A DNA stretch of 64,000 nucleotides, taken from the NCBI RefSeq assembly GCF_013122565.1, contig NZ_CP053258.1; one strand, written 5' to 3'. This DNA comes from Escherichia coli (GTDB lineage: Bacteria > Pseudomonadota > Gammaproteobacteria > Enterobacterales > Enterobacteriaceae). A program made the translations under genes and the position numbers. The notes beneath the pieces are model-generated. The model made no database searches. It was not told the DNA's origin and worked only from the letters and a program-made list of their open reading frames with translations. Positions 542 to 57,506 of this stretch are shown piece after piece (the first letter of the stretch is position 1; each line of letters starts with the position of its first letter).

Positions 542-1330
542 TCATAATAATTGCGGCGGCGCAAAGCGACGGTTGTTTAAGACGGGCAGTTGCGCGCGCA
601 CCTGACGCACACGTTCGGGCGTCACTTCCGCCATAATGAGTGCAGGCATTTCTGACGCTGCCGCAATGGTGACGCCAAAGGGATCTATAATCCGGCTTTG
701 CCCGATATTTTTGTTCCCGCACTCCCCCGCCGCCACCATATAACAGGTGGTATCCAGCGCACGAGCGGCAAGCAACGTTGACCAGTGATGCTCTTTGAGC
801 GGCCCGCGAACCCAGGCGGCAGGAAGTACCAGGATTTCAGCTCCCTGTAATGCCTGTGCCAGCGCCAGCTCTGGAAAGCGTAAGTCATAACAGGTCATCA
901 GACCGACCTTCATCCCTTCCACCTCCAGTAATGGAGCTATTTCATTACCAGCATCAACATGGCGTGATTCCTGAATGGCAAATGCATCATAGAGATGAAG
1001 TTTGGCATAACGGGCAACGATGTTTCCTGCCTGTAGCGCCACCAGCATATTCCATGCGCGCCCCGGCGTTGAAGGAACATGAATCGTCAGAATTGTCGTC
1101 ATCATGTTACGTTTACTTTCTCGCCGTAAACGTCCGAGGAATTCGCCTTCCAGCAGCTGTGCTGATTTAACCGATAGATCTGCATCATGATCATCGCGCG
1201 CCAGCAATGCTTCCGGCAGGACAAACAGCGATACGTCGTTTTCCGCCGCCTGCGCCATCAACGAGGCACAAATCTCAGCGTTCTTTTCCCACACAGATGT
1301 AACAGCAAACTGTCCTGCAGCAACCAACAT
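542..1330 (-). CDS. ybeM: C-N hydrolase (nitrilase superfamily, Nit1-like amidase), apparently intact
   Basis: Track ORF 542..1336 (264 aa) with no internal stop; start placed at third codon to give 262 aa; position between tatE and crcB matches ybeM. Confidence 0.8.
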
Positions 1331-1422
1331 TGCCACCTCCTGTCAGAGTCGTAAAATTCGCCAACGACGATTATTCGGCGTTACACTTATCACTCATACA
1401 AATCAAATAGCAGGATTTTGCA

Positions 1423-1806
1423 GTGTTACAACTTCTTTTAGCAGTTTTTATTGGCGGTGGTACGGGAAGCGTGGCGAGATGGCTGTTAAGTATGCGATTT
1501 AACCCGCTGCATCAGGCGATTCCGTTGGGGACGCTGGCTGCAAACCTGATTGGGGCATTCATCATAGGAATGGGATTCGCCTGGTTCAGCAGGATGACAA
1601 ACATTGATCCCGTGTGGAAAGTATTAATCACCACCGGATTTTGTGGCGGTCTAACAACCTTCTCAACATTTTCGGCAGAAGTGGTGTTTTTGTTACAAGA
1701 GGGTCGCTTTGGCTGGGCATTACTGAACGTTTTCGTCAACCTTCTGGGGTCTTTTGCCATGACCGCACTGGCATTCTGGCTGTTTTCGGCCTCAACCGCA
1801 CACTAA
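1423..1806 (+). CDS. crcB: fluoride ion channel CrcB/FluC (127 aa)
   Basis: Track ORF 127 aa, hydrophobic four-helix pattern with GGxTTFSTF motif; start codon appears to be GTG. Confidence 0.92.
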
Positions 1807-1809
1807 AGA

Positions 1810-1845
1810 CCAAAAAAAACCCGCTGATTAAGCGGGTTTTGAATT
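1810..1845. terminator. bidirectional intrinsic terminator between convergent crcB and cspE
   Basis: aaaaaaaacccgct-gatta-agcgggtttt hairpin with flanking A and T runs. Confidence 0.7.
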
Positions 1846-1859
1846 CTTGCTGACGTATC

Positions 1860-2069
1860 TTACAGAGCGATTACGTTTGCAGCAGAAGGGCCTTTGGCAC
1901 CGTTAGTGATTTCGAACTCTACACGCTGACCTTCAGCAAGAGTTTTAAAACCATTAGTCTGGATTGCAGAGAAGTGTACGAACACGTCTTTGCTGCCGTC
2001 TTCCGGAGTAATGAAACCGAATCCTTTGGACTCATTAAACCACTTAACGTTACCTTTAATCTTAGACAT
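1860..2069 (-). CDS. cspE: cold-shock-domain protein CspE (69 aa)
   Basis: Internal start of track ORF 1860..2153; [37 protein letters not shown] contains the RNP1/RNP2 cold-shock motifs. Confidence 0.95.
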
Positions 2070-2243
2070 CAAAATTACCTTTACATGAAAAATAGACACA
2101 AATGCTGTGTCGGTTACCAGTACACCAATTGTGGTACGCTTTGTCCAGTGCAACTTTACTAAAAAGTGATAAAAGTCGCGTTATTTTTGATGTTAATTAT
2201 TTTACTCATTGATTTTAAAGAGTTTACTAAAATTTCATTTGTC

Positions 2244-15167: not shown

Positions 15168-15313
15168 TCATCTGATTTACAAAACACGCTAATTCGTCTC
15201 CCATAAACCATGACGATTAAGATTTATACATAATGCGCTGCATTGAGGAATTCCCTGAATGTGACGCAAATCACTTCAAAGAGTGAGCAACAGTCAGTAT
15301 CATCATGTGAGTT

Positions 15314-15348
15314 AAACCCTCGCCGCCTGACGGTGAGGGTTTTCTTTT
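15314..15348 (+). terminator. intrinsic terminator downstream of rna
   Basis: aaaccctcgccg-cctga-cggtgagggtttt-cttttgg hairpin plus U-tract (coordinates approximate). Confidence 0.6.
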
Positions 15349-15396
15349 GGGTATGTTTATCTGCGACACTCGCAGTACCGACGACATGGAGTAAAA

Positions 15397-34730: not shown

Positions 34731-34772
34731 GTCATTACGCCCTTAACCTTATTAATAACAGGAAGCTGATTT

Positions 34773-35729
34773 GTGAGACTCGCCCCGCTCTACCGCAATG
34801 CCCTTCTATTAACAGGACTTTTGCTTTCAGGAATAGCCGTAGTTCAGGCCGCCGACTGGCCGCGTCAGATTACTGACAGCCGGGGCACTCATACCCTGGA
34901 AAGCCAGCCGCAGCGTATTGTTTCCACCAGCGTCACCCTGACTGGCTCACTGCTGGCGATTGATGCTCCTGTGATCGCCAGCGGCGCGACCACGCCGAAT
35001 AACCGCGTCGCGGATGACCAGGGTTTTTTACGCCAGTGGAGCAAGGTGGCGAAAGAACGCAAACTGCAACGGCTCTATATCGGCGAACCGAGCGCCGAAG
35101 CCGTTGCCGCGCAAATGCCGGATCTGATTTTAATTAGCGCAACCGGTGGTGATTCGGCGCTGGCGCTGTATGATCAGCTTTCCACCATCGCCCCGACATT
35201 AATCATCAATTACGACGACAAAAGCTGGCAGTCGCTGTTAACGCAGCTTGGCGAAATTACCGGGCATGAGAAACAAGCGGCAGAGCGGATTGCACAGTTT
35301 GATAAGCAACTGGCGGCGGCGAAAGAGCAAATCAAATTACCGCCGCAGCCGGTCACTGCCATTGTCTATACCGCCGCTGCACACAGTGCCAATCTCTGGA
35401 CGCCGGAATCAGCACAAGGGCAGATGCTGGAACAACTCGGCTTTACGTTGGCGAAATTGCCCGCAGGGTTAAACGCCAGCCAAAGCCAGGGCAAACGCCA
35501 TGACATCATTCAGCTTGGTGGAGAAAATCTGGCTGCAGGGTTAAATGGCGAGTCACTATTCCTGTTCGCCGGTGATCAGAAAGATGCCGATGCTATTTAT
35601 GCCAATCCACTGCTCGCGCACCTGCCCGCAGTACAAAACAAGCAGGTTTATGCGCTGGGAACCGAGACGTTCCGTCTGGATTACTACAGCGCCATGCAAG
35701 TGCTGGAACGACTTAAGGCGCTGTTTTAA
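34773..35729 (+). CDS. fepB: ferric enterobactin periplasmic binding protein (318 aa)
   Basis: Track ORF 318 aa with signal peptide; start codon appears to be GTG; long structured leader upstream. Confidence 0.93.
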
Positions 35730-45342: not shown

Positions 45343-46545
45343 TCAACTCCTGTCATGGAAAAGTGGTTGCCAGAGGTCGATTAGCCCCTGCATCAAGCCA
45401 CCGCGCCAACAAAGCGCATCATGTCCGCCGTCAACCTGACGCCAGAAAATGGATACTTTTATGGGGTGTAATTGCGCATATAGCGCCTGATTGGCCCGCA
45501 TGATCATCGGCTCGCGAATACCCGCTTCCAGCACAATGCGCAGACCTTCGGCGCTAACTTCACCAGCTTTAAGCTTTTCAAGTAACACGCCCTCTTGCTG
45601 CCCGCCCCGGTGCGGCCACCAGTACGATCCTGACTGGCTTAATACACAGCCAAAGCGTTCAGGCCAGTGCAGTCCGGCATACAGCGCGGAAAGCCCACCA
45701 AAACTCTGCCCGGCGACCACGGTGCGATCGGCGCGATCGCTAAAAGGGGCAATAGCTTTCACCAGGGGTAATAACTCTTGCTGTACTGCCAGCCAGAAAT
45801 CCGCATTACACGGCAGTTCGTGGGCGCGATGCGTGGTGTCGATAGCGTCGATCAACACATACACGGCGGGAGGAAGTTGCTGACGATGGGTCAACGAAGT
45901 CAGCGCAGGCCAGACGGGCATACTCTGCGCCCAAAATTCGCCATCAAGCAAAACTGCCAGCGGGCGTTCTTCTGCTGTTGCATCACCGGTGGTAAAAATC
46001 CATACACGGCGTGAATTTTTCAACCGTTCACTTTTCCAGATAATTTCTTTGGCTGGTATTTCTGGCGCTTGCGGACAATCCCATCCCGGTTGCAGAGGCG
46101 CTTGCGGCATTTCGAGTGCAGAAACAGCGTGCCCTCGCCCGCCTTTCCAGCTTTGTGGATTCAGCGGATCGGCTATTGCCTGGGGTAATAGTTTTCGCCA
46201 GCCTTCACGTAATTCGAGGCGATCGGGGGATGGTGCAGAAAAAATGTCATCGCGTTCGGTGGGAATAAAGCAGTAGCTGCCGCGCCAGTTGGCATTGAGT
46301 TGTGTCGTCCACTGCCAGACATCAGTACCTGCAATTCGCTGCATCGACTGGGGCTGGCTGTTCTGATGATGATCGGTCACACCAGTGATGTAGACCCATA
46401 CGCGCTTTATCGTCGAGTATTCTTCAGAACCTTGGGGATCACGCCACCAGAAAGTGACCTCAAACATTTCGTCATTCAGACGCTGCCATTCCGGGCCATG
46501 TTTCGACTGCCACCAGCTCTCACTTCCTACTTTTAACGCCGTCAC
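45343..46545 (-). CDS. fes: enterochelin esterase (400 aa)
   Basis: Track ORF 400 aa with GQSFGG serine-hydrolase motif; start codon is GTG. Confidence 0.92.
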   Translation of the reverse strand: MTALKVGSESWWQSKHGPEWQRLNDEMFEVTFWWRDPQGSEEYSTIKRVWVYITGVTDHHQNSQPQSMQRIAGTDVWQWTTQLNANWRGSYCFIPTERDDIFSAPSPDRLELREGWRKLLPQAIADPLNPQSWKGGRGHAVSALEMPQAPLQPGWDCPQAPEIPAKEIIWKSERLKNSRRVWIFTTGDATAEERPLAVLLDGEFWAQSMPVWPALTSLTHRQQLPPAVYVLIDAIDTTHRAHELPCNADFWLAVQQELLPLVKAIAPFSDRADRTVVAGQSFGGLSALYAGLHWPERFGCVLSQSGSYWWPHRGGQQEGVLLEKLKAGEVSAEGLRIVLEAGIREPMIMRANQALYAQLHPIKVSIFWRQVDGGHDALCWRGGLMQGLIDLWQPLFHDRS

Positions 46546-46589
46546 ACCATAACCCCATGTTTACTGTGCAATTTTTCATTGATTGCAGA

Positions 46590-49067: not shown

Positions 49068-49164
49068 GCCGGATGCGGCGTGAACGCCTTATCCGGCCTA
49101 CAAAATCTTGCTAATTCAATATATTGCAGGACTACGTAGGCCTGATAAGCGTAGCGCATCAGGC
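49068..49164. repeat. BIME: two REP units in inverted orientation between fepA and entD
   Basis: gccggatgcggcgtgaacgccttatccggcctaca (49068-49102) and gtaggcctgataagcgtagcgcatcaggc (49136-49164). Confidence 0.6.
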
Positions 49165-50192: not shown

Positions 50193-51044
50193 TTAAACAC
50201 GAGGCATATAGGTCTGATTCCGATATTCAATTGGAGTCAGACCTTTTAATTTCAGGCTAATTCTTCTGCTGTTGTAGTATTCAATATATTCCGTAACAGC
50301 ATCCTTCAGTTCGCTTATATTACTGAACTCATCAAGATAAAAACACTCCGACTTTAAGGTTCCAAAGAAACACTCCACCACAGCATTATCCAGACAATTG
50401 CCTTTTCTGGACATGCTTTGTTTAATACCATGTTCTTTAAGGATATTTTGATATCTTCTCATACGATACTGCCATCCCTGGTCAGAGTGCAGAACAGGAT
50501 GCTCGTGAGGATTAAGCTTTTTGAATGCCTGATCGAGCATATTCTCAACCATGTTCATCACTGGTCTTTCCGAAAGGCTGTAAGAAATAACTTCATTGTT
50601 GAAGAGATCTATTACTGGAGACAAATACAGCTTGCGCCCATTGACTGCAAATTCAGTAACATCGGTAACCCACTTCTCGTTTGGCCGCGTAGCCTTGAAA
50701 TCTCTTTGGAGAACATTGGGGGCGGTTTGCCCTACCTCTCCTCTGTAAGAGCGGTATCGCTTGACCTTAATCGCTGCCTTAAGTGAGAGGGTTCCCATCA
50801 GGCGCTGAACAGCTTTATGGTTAATCTGTTTCCCTTCTCGATGAAGAGACAGCGTTACCCTACGGTATCCGTATCGGCCTCTATTCTCATGATAAATCTC
50901 ACCAATACGCTTTTTAACGTCCGCATACTTGTCAGGCTTGCTGAGAGCCTTTAGATGGTAATAAAACGTACTGCGCGGTATCTCCGCAGCCCTGAGAAGC
51001 TCATCAAGAGGATAAAACTGCCTTAGCTCGTTGAGTACTTTCAC
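50193..51044 (-). CDS. insK: IS150 OrfB (InsK, DDE catalytic domain, 283 aa; expressed as OrfAB fusion by -1 frameshift)
   Basis: Track ORF 283 aa with integrase-core DDE region; overlaps orfA in the -1 frame. Confidence 0.93.
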
Positions 51045-51562
51045 TTTTTCGTGGGATGAGCTAAGGCTTTCAGCTTTTTTAGATACACAAGCCGCGTTTC
51101 AAGAAATCGAACTTGCCTTTCAAGATCCTCAATGCGTCGGTCTTTTGACAGCTCCAATGCTGATGCCGCTTTTTCTGGATCAACTGATATTGCAATGTTT
51201 CTTTTGGTGCCAATCTTGAGCGCGCGTAAACCAGCTTCTCCGCGCTCTTCATAAACCTTCAGCCACCTGGCTACAGAACCACTACCAGCAAGCATAAAGT
51301 GAGCAGCAGCCTGATTAAGGGACATGTGCTGCTCGATCACAGCTTTCACGACCTTAATACGCAACTCTGGATCAGCACTAACACCTTTAGGTTTGGGAAT
51401 TAAACCTTTTTCTCCATGTTTTTCATAGAGGGCAACCCATGTCCTGACCTGGGTTCGGGGGACACCAAAACGTGCCGAGATGATCCTGTAACCATCATCA
51501 GTAGTGAAGTAGTGATTCACGACTTCAAGGCGCTTTTCAAAAGGGTATTTTGGCTTTGACAT
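51041..51562 (-). CDS. insJ: IS150 OrfA (InsJ, HTH DNA-binding, 173 aa)
   Basis: Track ORF 173 aa (MSKPKYPFEKRLEVVNHYFTTDDGYRIISARFGVPRTQVRTW...), recognised as IS150 OrfA. Confidence 0.93.
   Translation of the reverse strand: MSKPKYPFEKRLEVVNHYFTTDDGYRIISARFGVPRTQVRTWVALYEKHGEKGLIPKPKGVSADPELRIKVVKAVIEQHMSLNQAAAHFMLAGSGSVARWLKVYEERGEAGLRALKIGTKRNIAISVDPEKAASALELSKDRRIEDLERQVRFLETRLVYLKKLKALAHPTKK
51074..51080 (-). other. IS150 programmed -1 ribosomal frameshift slippery heptamer A_AAA_AAG near the end of orfA
   Basis: orfA codons ...CTA AAA AAG CTG... (L-K-K-L) located 11-12 codons before the orfA stop, within the orfA/orfB overlap window. Confidence 0.7.
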
Positions 51563-51984
51563 ATCAGGGGCTATTCCATTTCATCGTCCAACAAAATGGG
51601 TGCAGTACAGGGTTGATAGAAATATCTCCTGGGGCTTCATCTTTCCAGACCTCAGAGTAAACCTGAAACCGGAAAGCTTCAGGCACCCGCCGTTATCTTA
51701 CCCTTCCTCAACAAAATAGCTGTTTATTTATACAGTGAGTCCTGTTTCGGACTTCTCACTCCCCATTTGATCAACTGAAGCTGAACCCGTTTTTTTCTGC
51801 ATGCCGCAATCGTCAAAATTCTTCGCCACCAGCCAGCCGTGCCATAACTTGTCACATTGCAAAAGTAGCCAAATTGCTTCAGGCACCATCAGTTCACCAT
51901 CACCAAAAAAAAGAAACATTCCAGAACTTCCGCATCTCGCCCAGCCGCTCCGACTTCTATACTGAATAGAAAACGCCAACATAA

Positions 51985-56028: not shown

Positions 56029-57405
56029 TTATTTCCGACGCAGCGTTTTAAATGCCACAAACAGGAATACAATCCACACCGGCAGCAGGATCGCTGACAA
56101 GCGCATATCATCCATCGTGCACATCAGCAGCAAAATCATGCCGAGGAAGGCAATGCAGAGATAGTTTCCGAACGGATAGAGCAGCGCCTTAAACTGTGTT
56201 TCACGCCCCTGACGTCGCATCGCTGCACGAAAACGCAGATGCGCCAGACAGATCATAATCCAGTTCAACAGCAGCGTTGCTACCACCAGCGCCATCAGCA
56301 GACCAAACGCTTTTTGCGGCAGCAGATAGTTGATTAACACCACCAGCGAAGTGATCGCTCCGGAAAGCATCAGCGAGTTAATCGGCACGCCGCGACGGCT
56401 AACACGGGTAAGGAACTTCGGCGCATTACCCTGCACAGAAAGGCCAAACAGCATGCGGCTGTTAGAGTAAACCCCGCTGTTATACACCGACAGCGATGCT
56501 ACCAGAATGACGAAGTTCAGCGCAGAAGCTACCACGTTGCTGTCGAGATTATGGAAAATCATCACAAACGGGCTACTGTTGGATTTCACTTCCACCCACG
56601 GATAGAGCGCCAGTAAAACCACCAGTGAACCGATGTAAAACAGCAGGATGCGATACACCACCTGATTTACCGCTTTTGGAATGCTTTTTTCCGGATCGCG
56701 CGCTTCAGCGGCAGTAATCCCAATCAGCTCCAGACCGCCGAAGGAGAACATAATTACCGCCAGCGACAAAATCAGCCCATTCCAGCCGGTGGCGAAGAAA
56801 CCACCGTAGCGCCAGAGGTTGTCGATACTGGCTTTCTCGCCGCCGTGACCAGAAAACAGCAGCCACAGGCCAAAGCCGATCATACCGATGATCGCCAGCA
56901 CTTTAATCAGCGCAAACCAGAACTCGGTTTCGCCATATAAGCGCACGTTCACCAGGTTAACGGCGTTGATGATAATAAAGAAGGCGGCAGCCCAAATCCA
57001 CGTTGGAACATCCGGGAACCAGTACTGCATATAGATGCCCGCAGCGGTCAGCTCTGCCATTCCCACCAGCACGAACATCACCCAGTAATTCCAGCCAGAG
57101 AGGAAGCCCGCGAACGGTCCCCAGTATTTATAGGCAAAGTGGGCAAATGAACCGGATACCGGCTCCTCAACCACCATTTCGCCAAGCTGGCGCATAATCA
57201 GGAAAGCGATGATCCCGGCGACGCCGTAGCCCAGCAATACAGCCGGACCCGCCATCTGAATCGCCGGGCCAATGCCAAGAAACAGACCAGTACCAATTGC
57301 GCCACCCAGCGCAATCAGTTGAATATGACGGTTATGTAATCCGCGATGAAGCGTCGGCTCTTGATTCGACGCAGTATCTTCCGATACGGTTGACGCGTTT
57401 TTCAC
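56029..57405 (-). CDS. pheP: phenylalanine-specific permease, APC family (458 aa)
   Basis: Track ORF 56029..57441 trimmed to residue 13 (GTG start; VKNASTVSEDTASNQEP) to give 458 aa; start codon choice is from memory of PheP length. Confidence 0.88.
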   Translation of the reverse strand: MKNASTVSEDTASNQEPTLHRGLHNRHIQLIALGGAIGTGLFLGIGPAIQMAGPAVLLGYGVAGIIAFLIMRQLGEMVVEEPVSGSFAHFAYKYWGPFAGFLSGWNYWVMFVLVGMAELTAAGIYMQYWFPDVPTWIWAAAFFIIINAVNLVNVRLYGETEFWFALIKVLAIIGMIGFGLWLLFSGHGGEKASIDNLWRYGGFFATGWNGLILSLAVIMFSFGGLELIGITAAEARDPEKSIPKAVNQVVYRILLFYIGSLVVLLALYPWVEVKSNSSPFVMIFHNLDSNVVASALNFVILVASLSVYNSGVYSNSRMLFGLSVQGNAPKFLTRVSRRGVPINSLMLSGAITSLVVLINYLLPQKAFGLLMALVVATLLLNWIMICLAHLRFRAAMRRQGRETQFKALLYPFGNYLCIAFLGMILLLMCTMDDMRLSAILLPVWIVFLFVAFKTLRRK

Positions 57406-57506
57406 GCCTTTCCCCTGTGTGTCTTTTTTGTTGAGGGGCACCTTTTAACATTTAGTGCCCATCGTCGCAAGACACAATCCACACGGTCAAACGGGGTATC
57501 CTGCTT

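Follow-up and report, generated by a model that had tools for sequence, protein, structure and literature searches.

GUG translation starts of pheP, fes, fepB, and crcB in a segment of the Escherichia coli chromosome

Initiation of translation at GUG is a familiar feature of E. coli, where GUG-initiated genes make up 7%–14% of annotated starts and lacI is the classic example. Initiation at GUG is generally less efficient than at AUG, and the maintenance of weak start codons by selection is an established idea. Among proteomically verified annotated E. coli starts, GTG was found in 50 of 688 (7.3%). Several published systems come close to the genes described here. In PMC7769764, fepB is given as a gene with a GUG start, and an AU-rich enhancer in its leader (Hook-Barnard, Brickman, and McIntosh, 2007, J Bacteriol 189:4028, as cited there) is said to compensate for the GUG. 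So-called ambiguous starts with the gtGTG or ATGTG arrangement form another class (Kohl et al., 2022, NAR 51:271). In that paper, fes is among the 12 gtGTG-starting K-12 genes of Table 3; it is given there without a Shine-Dalgarno (SD) sequence of at least 4 nt and without a prediction of ambiguity. The position of E. coli starts has also been addressed in datasets obtained by TetRP (Nakahigashi, 2016), by Ribo-RET (Meydan, 2019), and by INRI-seq, and in TRAINSPOTTER. These ask the same question as the present analysis with the same kinds of evidence, and pheP serves as a positive control.

The window analyzed here is a stretch of 64,000 nucleotides of the E. coli chromosome that runs from tatE-crcB through the ent/fep genes to pheP-cusCFBA. 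When the annotated CDS starts of K-12 MG1655 (n = 58) were placed on it by blastn, 54 of them fell on ATG and four on GTG, the latter belonging to pheP, fes, fepB, and crcB (Table 1). An earlier note on this DNA had assigned the same four genes to GTG, and the K-12 RefSeq record (NC_000913.3) and the PGAP annotation of GF3-3 both put all four starts on these codons. GF3-3 is the closest RefSeq genome, with 99.8% identity over 1.7 kb around pheP. The resulting CDS lengths of 1,377 (pheP), 1,203 (fes), 957 (fepB), and 384 nt (crcB) are the same in GF3-3. The four starts are already known from K-12 RefSeq and PGAP, and published work covers those of pheP and fepB; literature searches returned no relevant explicit statement on the GTG start of pheP or fes. 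The experimental initiation data used below come from K-12, another strain than that of the window, and the initiation regions of all four genes are identical to K-12 from −30 to +25. Ribo-RET values were taken as re-tabulated in Table S2 of the INRI-seq study.

Table 1. Positions of the start codons and neighboring features in the window
Feature	Position	Strand	Basis or remark
In-frame stop TAG and SD AGGA upstream of crcB	1408..1415 (TAG 1408..1410; AGGA 1412..1415)	+	duplex −4.1 kcal/mol
crcB (flc) initiation codon GTG	1423..1425	+	annotated; K-12 mapping
crcB CDS, 127 aa	1423..1806	+	ORF and annotations
AU-rich tract TTATTAATAA just upstream of fepB SD	34749..34758	+	candidate for the published translational enhancer
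fepB SD CAGGAAG (−14..−8)	34759..34765	+	duplex −4.3 kcal/mol
fepB initiation codon GTG	34773..34775	+	annotated; K-12 mapping; in-frame TGA two codons upstream
fepB CDS, 318 aa	34773..35729	+	ORF and annotations
fes CDS, 400 aa	45343..46545	−	ORF and annotations
fes Met27 ATG, 374-aa product	46465..46467	−	rejected as main start; SD −2.4 kcal/mol
fes initiation codon GTG, gtGTG context	46543..46545	−	annotated in K-12 (NP_415117.2) and GF3-3; K-12 mapping
Two-codon mini-ORF ATG GTG TGA, out of frame, overlapping the fes start	46542..46550	−	read from sequence
fes SD-like GGGG (−11..−8) within conserved aaacatGGGGtta block	46553..46556	−	duplex −5.4 kcal/mol
pheP CDS, 458 aa, stop included	56029..57405	−	ORF and annotations
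pheP initiation codon GTG, read as fMet	57403..57405	−	annotated in K-12 and GF3-3; K-12 mapping
pheP SD region GGGGAAAGG (−10..−2)	57407..57415	−	best anti-SD duplex −6.5 kcal/mol
Upstream GTG heading the 470-aa pheP ORF	57439..57441	−	start of longest ORF
pheP promoter	57442..57470	−	−35 TTGCGA 57470..57465; 17-nt spacer; −10 TAAAAG 57447..57442

With a probability of about 0.93, all four genes (pheP, fes, fepB, and crcB) belong to the ordinary genes of E. coli in which translation starts at GUG. In the mechanism proposed, an SD-like purine tract 7–10 nt upstream (GGGGA in pheP, GGGG in fes, AGGA in fepB and crcB) would position the 30S subunit so that the GUG comes to lie in the P site, where the initiator fMet-tRNA would read it by virtue of its tolerance of a mismatch at the first codon position. 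Being read by this tRNA, the GUG would give a protein that begins with (f)Met and not with Val. In the SD-positioned GUG, the initiator tRNA, the Met N terminus, and the frequency of such starts (4/58), the genes resemble the canonical GUG-initiated genes of E. coli; no substantive difference was found, and all four belong to that annotated set. The share of GTG starts in the window (6.9%) gave no indication of local enrichment, with a binomial P(X ≥ 4) of 0.67–0.97 at genome-wide rates of 7.8%–14%, and a reading of the four genes as a cluster of GTG starts was dropped because 4/58 is not above chance. Nothing new about the biology follows from these starts, which are a normal, mostly conserved feature.

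The practical consequence concerns ORF tracks. Those built on the first ATG or on the longest ORF misplace starts in this window, where four genes need GTG. The longest-ORF rule over-extends 25 of the 58 genes, in which an in-frame ATG, GTG, or TTG upstream of the annotated start adds 2–47 codons, as anticipated by the earlier note, which had suspected spurious N-terminal extensions in the track. In three genes (fes, fepB, and crcB), no ATG, GTG, or TTG comes between an in-frame stop and the GTG, which is thus the first possible start of the ORF.

The kind of support differs from gene to gene: an N-terminal peptide together with Ribo-RET and INRI-seq for pheP, INRI-seq together with conservation of the GTG for fepB and crcB, and coding-type substitutions for fes. 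Initiation at an in-frame ATG elsewhere, which the earlier note had named as the observation that would speak against it, was seen for none of them, as Table S3 of the INRI-seq study lists no alternative initiation sites for pheP, fes, fepB, or crcB. None of the four appears in the TetRP supplements either, i.e., no re-mapping was proposed there. In this respect they are unlike the corrected genes of those datasets, none being listed for re-mapping or for an alternative initiation site. Pfam boundaries are helpful for pheP and crcB, neutral for fepB, and non-discriminating for fes.

The initiation codon of pheP reads CAC on the plus strand of the window and GTG on the minus strand, and the next codons are AAA AAC GCG TCA (K N A S). 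At this codon (K-12 601959–601961), TRAINSPOTTER records an N-terminal peptide, MKNASTVSEDTASNQEPTLHR, with iMet, and the entry carries Ribo-RET and INRI support alongside the peptide, both scored TRUE. Initiation peaks of 21–30 CPM were obtained in 5/5 INRI-seq replicates, and the Ribo-RET peak is 28 CPM. Such peptide and initiation-profiling data had been suggested beforehand as a check, and the published values confirm GTG for pheP. The window equals K-12 from −30 to +30 of this start, and 5,057 of 5,403 E. coli genomes share the identical 66-nt start region. The SD core, GGGGA at −10 to −6, is suitably spaced and lies in a block, aCAGGGGAAnGnC, that is kept across genera. Salmonella, Klebsiella, E. 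kobei, and a Citrobacter-like contig all carry GTG at the homologous codon. Altogether, GTG and SD are kept in five of six other enterobacterial contigs; the sixth, a metagenomic contig, has GCG, which indicates that the pheP start is not immovable. At the protein level, 19 PheP homologues have a literal V as their first residue and K/N-N-A-S after it. The promoter of pheP, with its native 17-nt spacer, has been published (Forquet et al., 2022, Suppl. Table S1), and the promoter block is conserved across genera. A simple sigma-70 consensus scan upstream of pheP found no promoter and thus missed the published one.

For fepB, GTG was found in 76 of 76 Enterobacteriaceae species, with CAGGA conserved in at least 90% across the same species. 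INRI-seq in vitro gave 16–27 CPM at this GTG in 5/5 replicates. The window leader is the same as that of K-12 from −30 to −1, and the published enhancer concerns the same gene, with TTATTAATAA adjoining the SD; between +26 and +122 there are six differences between the window and K-12. After the GTG, the TTG of codon 17, within the signal peptide, is the next canonical candidate, and the Pfam domain Peripla_BP_2 spans residues 50–297 of FepB. The in vitro footprint, the conservation, and the lack of an alternative start that would spare the export signal all point to the GTG. A similar picture is seen for crcB. INRI-seq in vitro gave 22–38 CPM at its GTG in 5/5 replicates, and at the DNA level the GTG, the AGGA, and the stop five codons upstream are kept in 5/5 genera. 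All 20 CrcB homologues that are exactly 127 aa long and retain their literal first residue start with V. With the Pfam domain CRCB beginning at residue 6 and the following ATG at codon 24, footprint, conservation, and domain boundary agree on the same start. The in vivo Ribo-RET signal is 0 at both fepB and crcB, presumably because of low expression in that experiment. Upstream of crcB, no fluoride riboswitch was detected by an Rfam scan.

The assignment of fes is the weakest of the four, and its GTG is without a detected initiation footprint: INRI-seq gave 0, 0, 0, 5.1, and 0 CPM, Ribo-RET gave 0, and TRAINSPOTTER lists no N-terminal peptide for Fes. The RNA structure predicted between −30 and +18 is unremarkable at the four starts (ranks 16, 24, 29, and 46 of 58) and does not account for the absent INRI-seq signal at fes. 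No other in-frame ATG, GTG, or TTG lies between codon 27 and the stop located six codons ahead of the GTG. The case for it comes from comparison of 28 species, in which codons 7–26 contain no stops and show nucleotide diversities of 0.20, 0.16, and 0.435 at the three codon positions. The corresponding values are 0.12, 0.11, and 0.48 for codons 29–60 and 0.46, 0.47, and 0.44 for the region upstream. Codons 7–26 thus resemble the body of the gene, unlike the upstream region, which indicates that they evolve as coding sequence; this coding pattern is seen ahead of the alternative ATG, and Met27 is not conserved. Upstream, the aaacatGGGGtta block is kept across genera, with AAGG, GAGG, and AGGG as variants of its purine tract. 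In addition, the Fes chains in PDB 2b20 (Shigella) and 3mga (Salmonella) contain the N-terminal segment.

Starts other than these GTGs can be considered for each gene. In pheP, the mechanically derived ORF reaches 12 codons beyond the annotated start, to the GTG at 57441, and PheP might be made from there as a protein of 470 instead of 458 aa, with the annotated GTG as an internal Val codon; a peptide spanning PLNKKDTQGKGVK would then be expected. The frame is open back to 57441, extended starts (e.g., MLKEAPSIKTTQGKGVKNAS and VPLQIKTRQGKGAKNAS) are picked by some gene callers in other genera, and the contig that carries GCG in place of the canonical GTG would require a start further upstream. 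However, the peptide begins with Met where the genome encodes Val, which is explained only by initiation at that codon, and both the Ribo-RET and the INRI peaks lie at the annotated site, whereas TRAINSPOTTER contains no extended PheP proteoform. The extension itself behaves as non-coding sequence: in-frame stops precede the pheP GTG by two codons in Salmonella (TAG) and by seven in E. kobei (TAA), and indels of 1–2 nt between genera disrupt the frame within the 12 codons. The Pfam domain AA_permease begins at residue 27 of the 458-aa PheP, corresponding to residue 39 in the 470-aa ORF. The SD of GTG 57441 is weak, at −2.4 kcal/mol versus −6.5 kcal/mol at the annotated start. Finally, this codon directly adjoins the −10 hexamer in the published promoter and precedes the transcription start, and owing to this placement it is probably absent from the pheP mRNA. 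The 12-codon extension is spurious and the 470-aa reading is essentially refuted. It is just as hard to credit that the GTG starts called for crcB and fepB are artefacts of annotation, with the true starts at Met24 of crcB and at the Leu17 TTG of fepB. Each GTG is the first possible start of its ORF, which gene finders favor, and the two genes share the silence in Ribo-RET. Against this stand the INRI-seq peaks at both GTGs in every replicate, with no alternative site called, the conservation of GTG and SD in all species (fepB) or genera (crcB) compared, and, for fepB, the published description of the gene as GUG-initiated. A start at Met24 would cost CrcB 18 residues at the beginning of the CRCB domain and, judging from the sequence, a start at Leu17 would strip the export signal of FepB of its charged N-region and of most of its hydrophobic core.

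In fes, translation mainly or additionally from the ATG of Met27, with the GTG as a longest-ORF choice of the annotation, is very unlikely. This start would yield 374 aa, the length of the original fes annotation, and the K-12 Fes protein record stands at version.2, indicating that the sequence was revised. ATG is also intrinsically the stronger start codon, initiation at the GTG was not seen by INRI-seq or Ribo-RET, and the Met27 product would keep all Pfam domains, since Enterochelin_N begins at residue 29. Nevertheless, this position is Met in only one of the 28 species and elsewhere Asn, Asp, Thr, or Lys; even Escherichia sp. MOD1-EC7003 and E. albertii have Asn and Thr, respectively. The variation in codons 7–26, dominated by third positions and free of stops, is difficult to reconcile with a start at Met27, before which the SD is weaker than at the GTG (−2.4 versus −5.4 kcal/mol). 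The fes oligo of INRI-seq includes Met27 and no alternative site was called, and Salmonella, Klebsiella, and Citrobacter all have a start codon at the N-terminal site that corresponds to the GTG of E. coli. A minor internal start in fes may exist alongside the GTG. A different route to the missing footprint is offered by the surroundings of the GTG. At fes, the window has the GGUGUGACG context, identical to that of this gtGTG-starting gene in K-12, and a short out-of-frame ORF, whose ATG lies at −5 relative to the GTG, overlaps the fes start. Citrobacter has the same ATG in frame with fes (ATG GCG GTG ACG). A shortening by 1 nt in Escherichia, relative to Citrobacter and Enterobacter, puts this conserved ATG out of frame and thereby creates the AUG GUG UGA mini-ORF, the stop of which overlaps the fes GUG inside a GUGUG motif. 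The mini-ORF is not discussed in the available passages of Kohl et al. (2022). From the sequence, fes initiation might hinge on a start-stop or termination-reinitiation event, or the start might be chosen ambiguously, although this is unlikely; if true, it could account for cell-free profiling missing fes even though Fes is made in vivo.

The GUG starts of the four genes, as preferred here, are each a single transition away from ATG. GTG is nevertheless strictly retained for fepB and crcB, and largely for pheP, across Enterobacteriaceae. This strict retention suggests that a weak GTG start may set low expression of these envelope proteins, and the conservation at fepB, crcB, and pheP illustrates how selection can keep weak start codons in place.

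Mapping of all 58 K-12 annotated CDS starts (MG1655, NC_000913.3) onto the window by blastn placed 54 on ATG and 4 on GTG. The four GTG starts are exactly those of pheP, fes, crcB, and fepB, the genes to which the earlier note had assigned GTG from the sequence alone; its observation is confirmed and its interpretation supported. None of these starts is new, as all four are present in the current K-12 RefSeq and PGAP annotations. Published proteomic and profiling data verify the pheP start, that of fepB is a GUG example of the textbook kind, and a list of gtGTG starts in the literature contains fes. The CDS lengths of the four genes are equal in the PGAP annotation of strain GF3-3, the best match (99.8%) to a 1.7-kb query around the pheP start, with pheP, cusA, and ybdG beneath; this query matched 5,404 of 5,426 complete E. 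coli genomes. The window is the reverse complement of MG1655 at ∼594.6–659.5 kb, with the gene order tatE, ybeM, crcB, cspE, pagP, dcuC, dpiAB, cit genes, rna, rnk, ahpCF, dsbG, ybdLMN, cstA, the ent/fep cluster, hokE, ybdK, nfsB, ybdG, pheP, cusABFC, and cusR. The number of GTG starts (6.9%) is not unusual: P(X ≥ 4) is 0.67–0.97 at genome-wide GTG rates of 7.8%–14%, and GTG accounts for 50 of 688 (7.3%) proteomically verified annotated E. coli starts.

Coordinates of GTG starts and other features in the window
Feature	Position	Strand	Remark
pheP GTG start	57405	-	K-12 annotation mapped by blastn
fes GTG start	46545	-	K-12 annotation mapped by blastn
fepB GTG start	34773	+	K-12 annotation mapped by blastn
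crcB GTG start	1423	+	K-12 annotation mapped by blastn
fes mini-ORF	46542..46550	-	ATG GTG TGA
TGAGAaGCATT block	~34733..34743		5′ of fepB
hokE CDS	start 50096	-	
sok	51533..51688	-	Rfam match
IS150	50193..51562	-	ORFs of 173 and 283 aa
ybeM homologue	542..1336	-	deaminated glutathione amidase
cspA-type thermoregulator	1812..2170	-	over cspE gene and 5′ leader (cspE start 2069); Rfam, above gathering score
rnk leader	15243..15351	+	Rfam, above gathering score
ES036 sRNA	49102..49143	+	downstream of fepA; Rfam, above gathering score

The codon at 57403..57405 reads CAC on the plus strand and GTG on the minus strand, and is followed by AAA AAC GCG TCA (K N A S). N-terminal peptides and initiation profiling had been named as the check on the pheP start, and published K-12 data already place it on the annotated GTG. 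In the N-terminal peptide dataset TRAINSPOTTER (NAR 2026, PMC13245402), row 120 of Table S1 gives the peptide MKNASTVSEDTASNQEPTLHR for b0576 (residues 1–21), which has the initiator Met still in place and whose first residue falls on the annotated GTG (K-12 601959–601961); Ribo-RET (in vivo) and INRI (in vitro) support is noted in the same row. Only initiation at that GTG explains why the peptide has Met at a codon that would otherwise be read as Val. The 60-nt context of the start is identical in K-12 and the window, and 5,057 of 5,403 E. coli genomes share an unchanged 66-nt start region. In other genera, 19 PheP homologues have a literal V first (VKNAS or VNNAS), and extended gene calls retain V at the canonical position (e.g., ...QGKGVKNAS). 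At the DNA level, Salmonella, Klebsiella, E. kobei, a Citrobacter-like contig, and another contig each carry GTG at the start, together with a conserved Shine-Dalgarno (SD) block, aCAGGGGAAnGnC.

The longest pheP ORF (470 aa) begins 12 codons upstream of the annotated 458-aa frame, at GTG 57441, and this extension is not coding. It is interrupted by in-frame stops in Salmonella (TAG, 2 codons upstream of the start) and E. kobei (TAA, 7 codons upstream), and the A-rich spacer upstream of the start varies among genera by indels of 1–3 nt. The SD energy of GTG 57441 is weak, −2.4 versus −6.5 kcal/mol at the annotated GTG. In the published promoter (Forquet et al., 2022), with −35 TTGCGA and the native 17-nt spacer, the −10 element lies directly 5′ of GTG 57441, which therefore falls between the −10 box and the transcription start. 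No in-frame ATG occurs before codon 51, where initiation would truncate the permease domain. An Enterobacter-like pheP (protein P0072) on a contig of JGI metagenome 3300011526 has GCG (Ala) in place of the GTG of all other sequences, and gene callers set its start 10–16 codons upstream. The GCG could be a real start shift, an incipient pseudogene, or a sequencing error.

In fepB, an in-frame TGA lies 2 codons 5′ of the GTG, and the nearest canonical alternative downstream, the TTG of codon 17, falls within the signal peptide. INRI-seq gave 16–27 CPM at the annotated GTG in 5/5 replicates (K-12). No Ribo-RET signal was observed at this codon in K-12, plausibly due to low expression in that experiment; fepB is repressed by Fur. 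A genome scan centred on fepC yielded 76 Enterobacteriaceae species, and all 76 have GTG as the aligned start codon, with CAGGA at −14..−10 at least 90% conserved. According to a review (PMC7769764, citing Hook-Barnard et al., 2007), the fepB mRNA is initiated at GUG and has an AU-rich translational enhancer, and in the window an AU-rich tract, TTATTAATAA, adjoins the SD. In the leader/promoter region ∼30–40 nt 5′ of the GTG, a TGAGAaGCATT block, at least 90% conserved in the 76 species, may belong to the fepB-entC control region governed by Fur. A contig titled Chryseobacterium sp. 18061 (L055) encodes a FepC of 87% identity and a fepB homologue with GTG at the aligned start, and a PheP of 87% identity (P0037) is named Vagococcus sp. 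WN89Y; such non-enterobacterial labels on enterobacterial genes probably reflect contaminated or mislabelled assemblies.

For crcB, INRI-seq gave 22–38 CPM at the GTG in 5/5 replicates (K-12). A stop 5 codons before the GTG and AGGA at −11..−8 are conserved, as is the GTG itself, in Salmonella, C. braakii, Pluralibacter, and Kosakonia, and V is first in all 20 homologues of exactly 127 aa with the literal first residue kept. The next ATG, at codon 24, is not viable as a start because the CRCB Pfam domain begins at residue 6. An Rfam scan found no fluoride riboswitch upstream of crcB.

The fes start is the least directly supported of the four. In K-12, INRI-seq showed no peak at the GTG (0, 0, 0, 5.1, and 0 CPM) and called no alternative site on the fes oligo, which includes Met27, the in-frame ATG downstream; Ribo-RET was silent at the GTG, and the TRAINSPOTTER table holds no Fes N-terminal peptide. 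The Pfam domain Enterochelin_N begins at residue 29, and Kohl et al. (2022) place fes in a list of gtGTG-starting genes with no SD of 4 nt or longer. The comparative evidence argues for the GTG over Met27. Among 28 species aligning without gaps, this residue is Met in the window alone; Asn stands there in 14 and Asp in 6, and the other members of Escherichia carry Asn or Thr. Codons 7–26 are stop-free, and their nucleotide diversity by codon position in the 28 species, 0.20/0.16/0.435, has the same coding signature as that of codons 29–60 (0.12/0.11/0.48), in contrast to a flat 0.46/0.47/0.44 in the upstream region. Translation must therefore begin upstream of codon 7, and the annotated GTG is the only in-frame ATG, GTG, or TTG between a TAA 6 codons upstream and codon 27. 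A conserved aaacatGGGGtta block provides an SD-like element at −11..−8 (variants AAGG, GAGG, and AGGG). The location of the start is shared with other genera: Salmonella has an ATG one codon earlier (MEEAL..., in agreement with the PDB 3mga chain) and Klebsiella an ATG two codons later, whereas Citrobacter and Enterobacter retain GTG. Of 5,409 E. coli genomes, 5,064 carry this start region unchanged. An out-of-frame mini-ORF overlaps the fes GTG. Its ATG is in frame in Citrobacter (ATG GCG GTG ACG), whereas Escherichia is 1 nt shorter; this length difference explains the mini-ORF, and a functional role is very unlikely.

The earlier note had also warned of spurious N-terminal extensions, and 25 of the 58 genes indeed have an in-frame ATG, GTG, or TTG 5′ of the annotated start, adding 2–47 codons; citC (+47), fepC (+47), entF (+46), and ybdF (+40) are examples. 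In fes (400 aa), fepB (318 aa), and crcB (127 aa), GTG is the first possible start after the stop in the mechanical ORF list. Six K-12 proteins of the region have accession versions above.1 (entD, fes, dsbG, and ahpF,.2; citE and citC,.4), indicating that their sequences were revised since first release. If starts were what changed, such revisions would be in keeping with the abundance of misleading longer ORFs in this region.

Pairing of SD and anti-SD sets GUG in the 30S P site, where it is read by the initiator tRNA, giving an fMet N terminus; this standard mechanism would apply to pheP, fes, fepB, and crcB. As a start codon, GUG tends to be weaker than AUG. That GTG, one transition from ATG, is kept in fepB (76/76 species), crcB (5/5 genera), and most pheP orthologues suggests that selection may favour a low set-point of translation.

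Elsewhere in the window, the ybeM homologue is an intact ORF, as in GF3-3, whereas the K-12 annotation is a pseudogene. IS150 separates sok and the upstream part of the hokE locus from the hokE frame, whereas K-12 has IS186 adjoining hokE and GF3-3 has two hokE copies without an IS. The same IS150-hokE layout recurs, with at least 80% query coverage, in 855 complete E. coli genomes.
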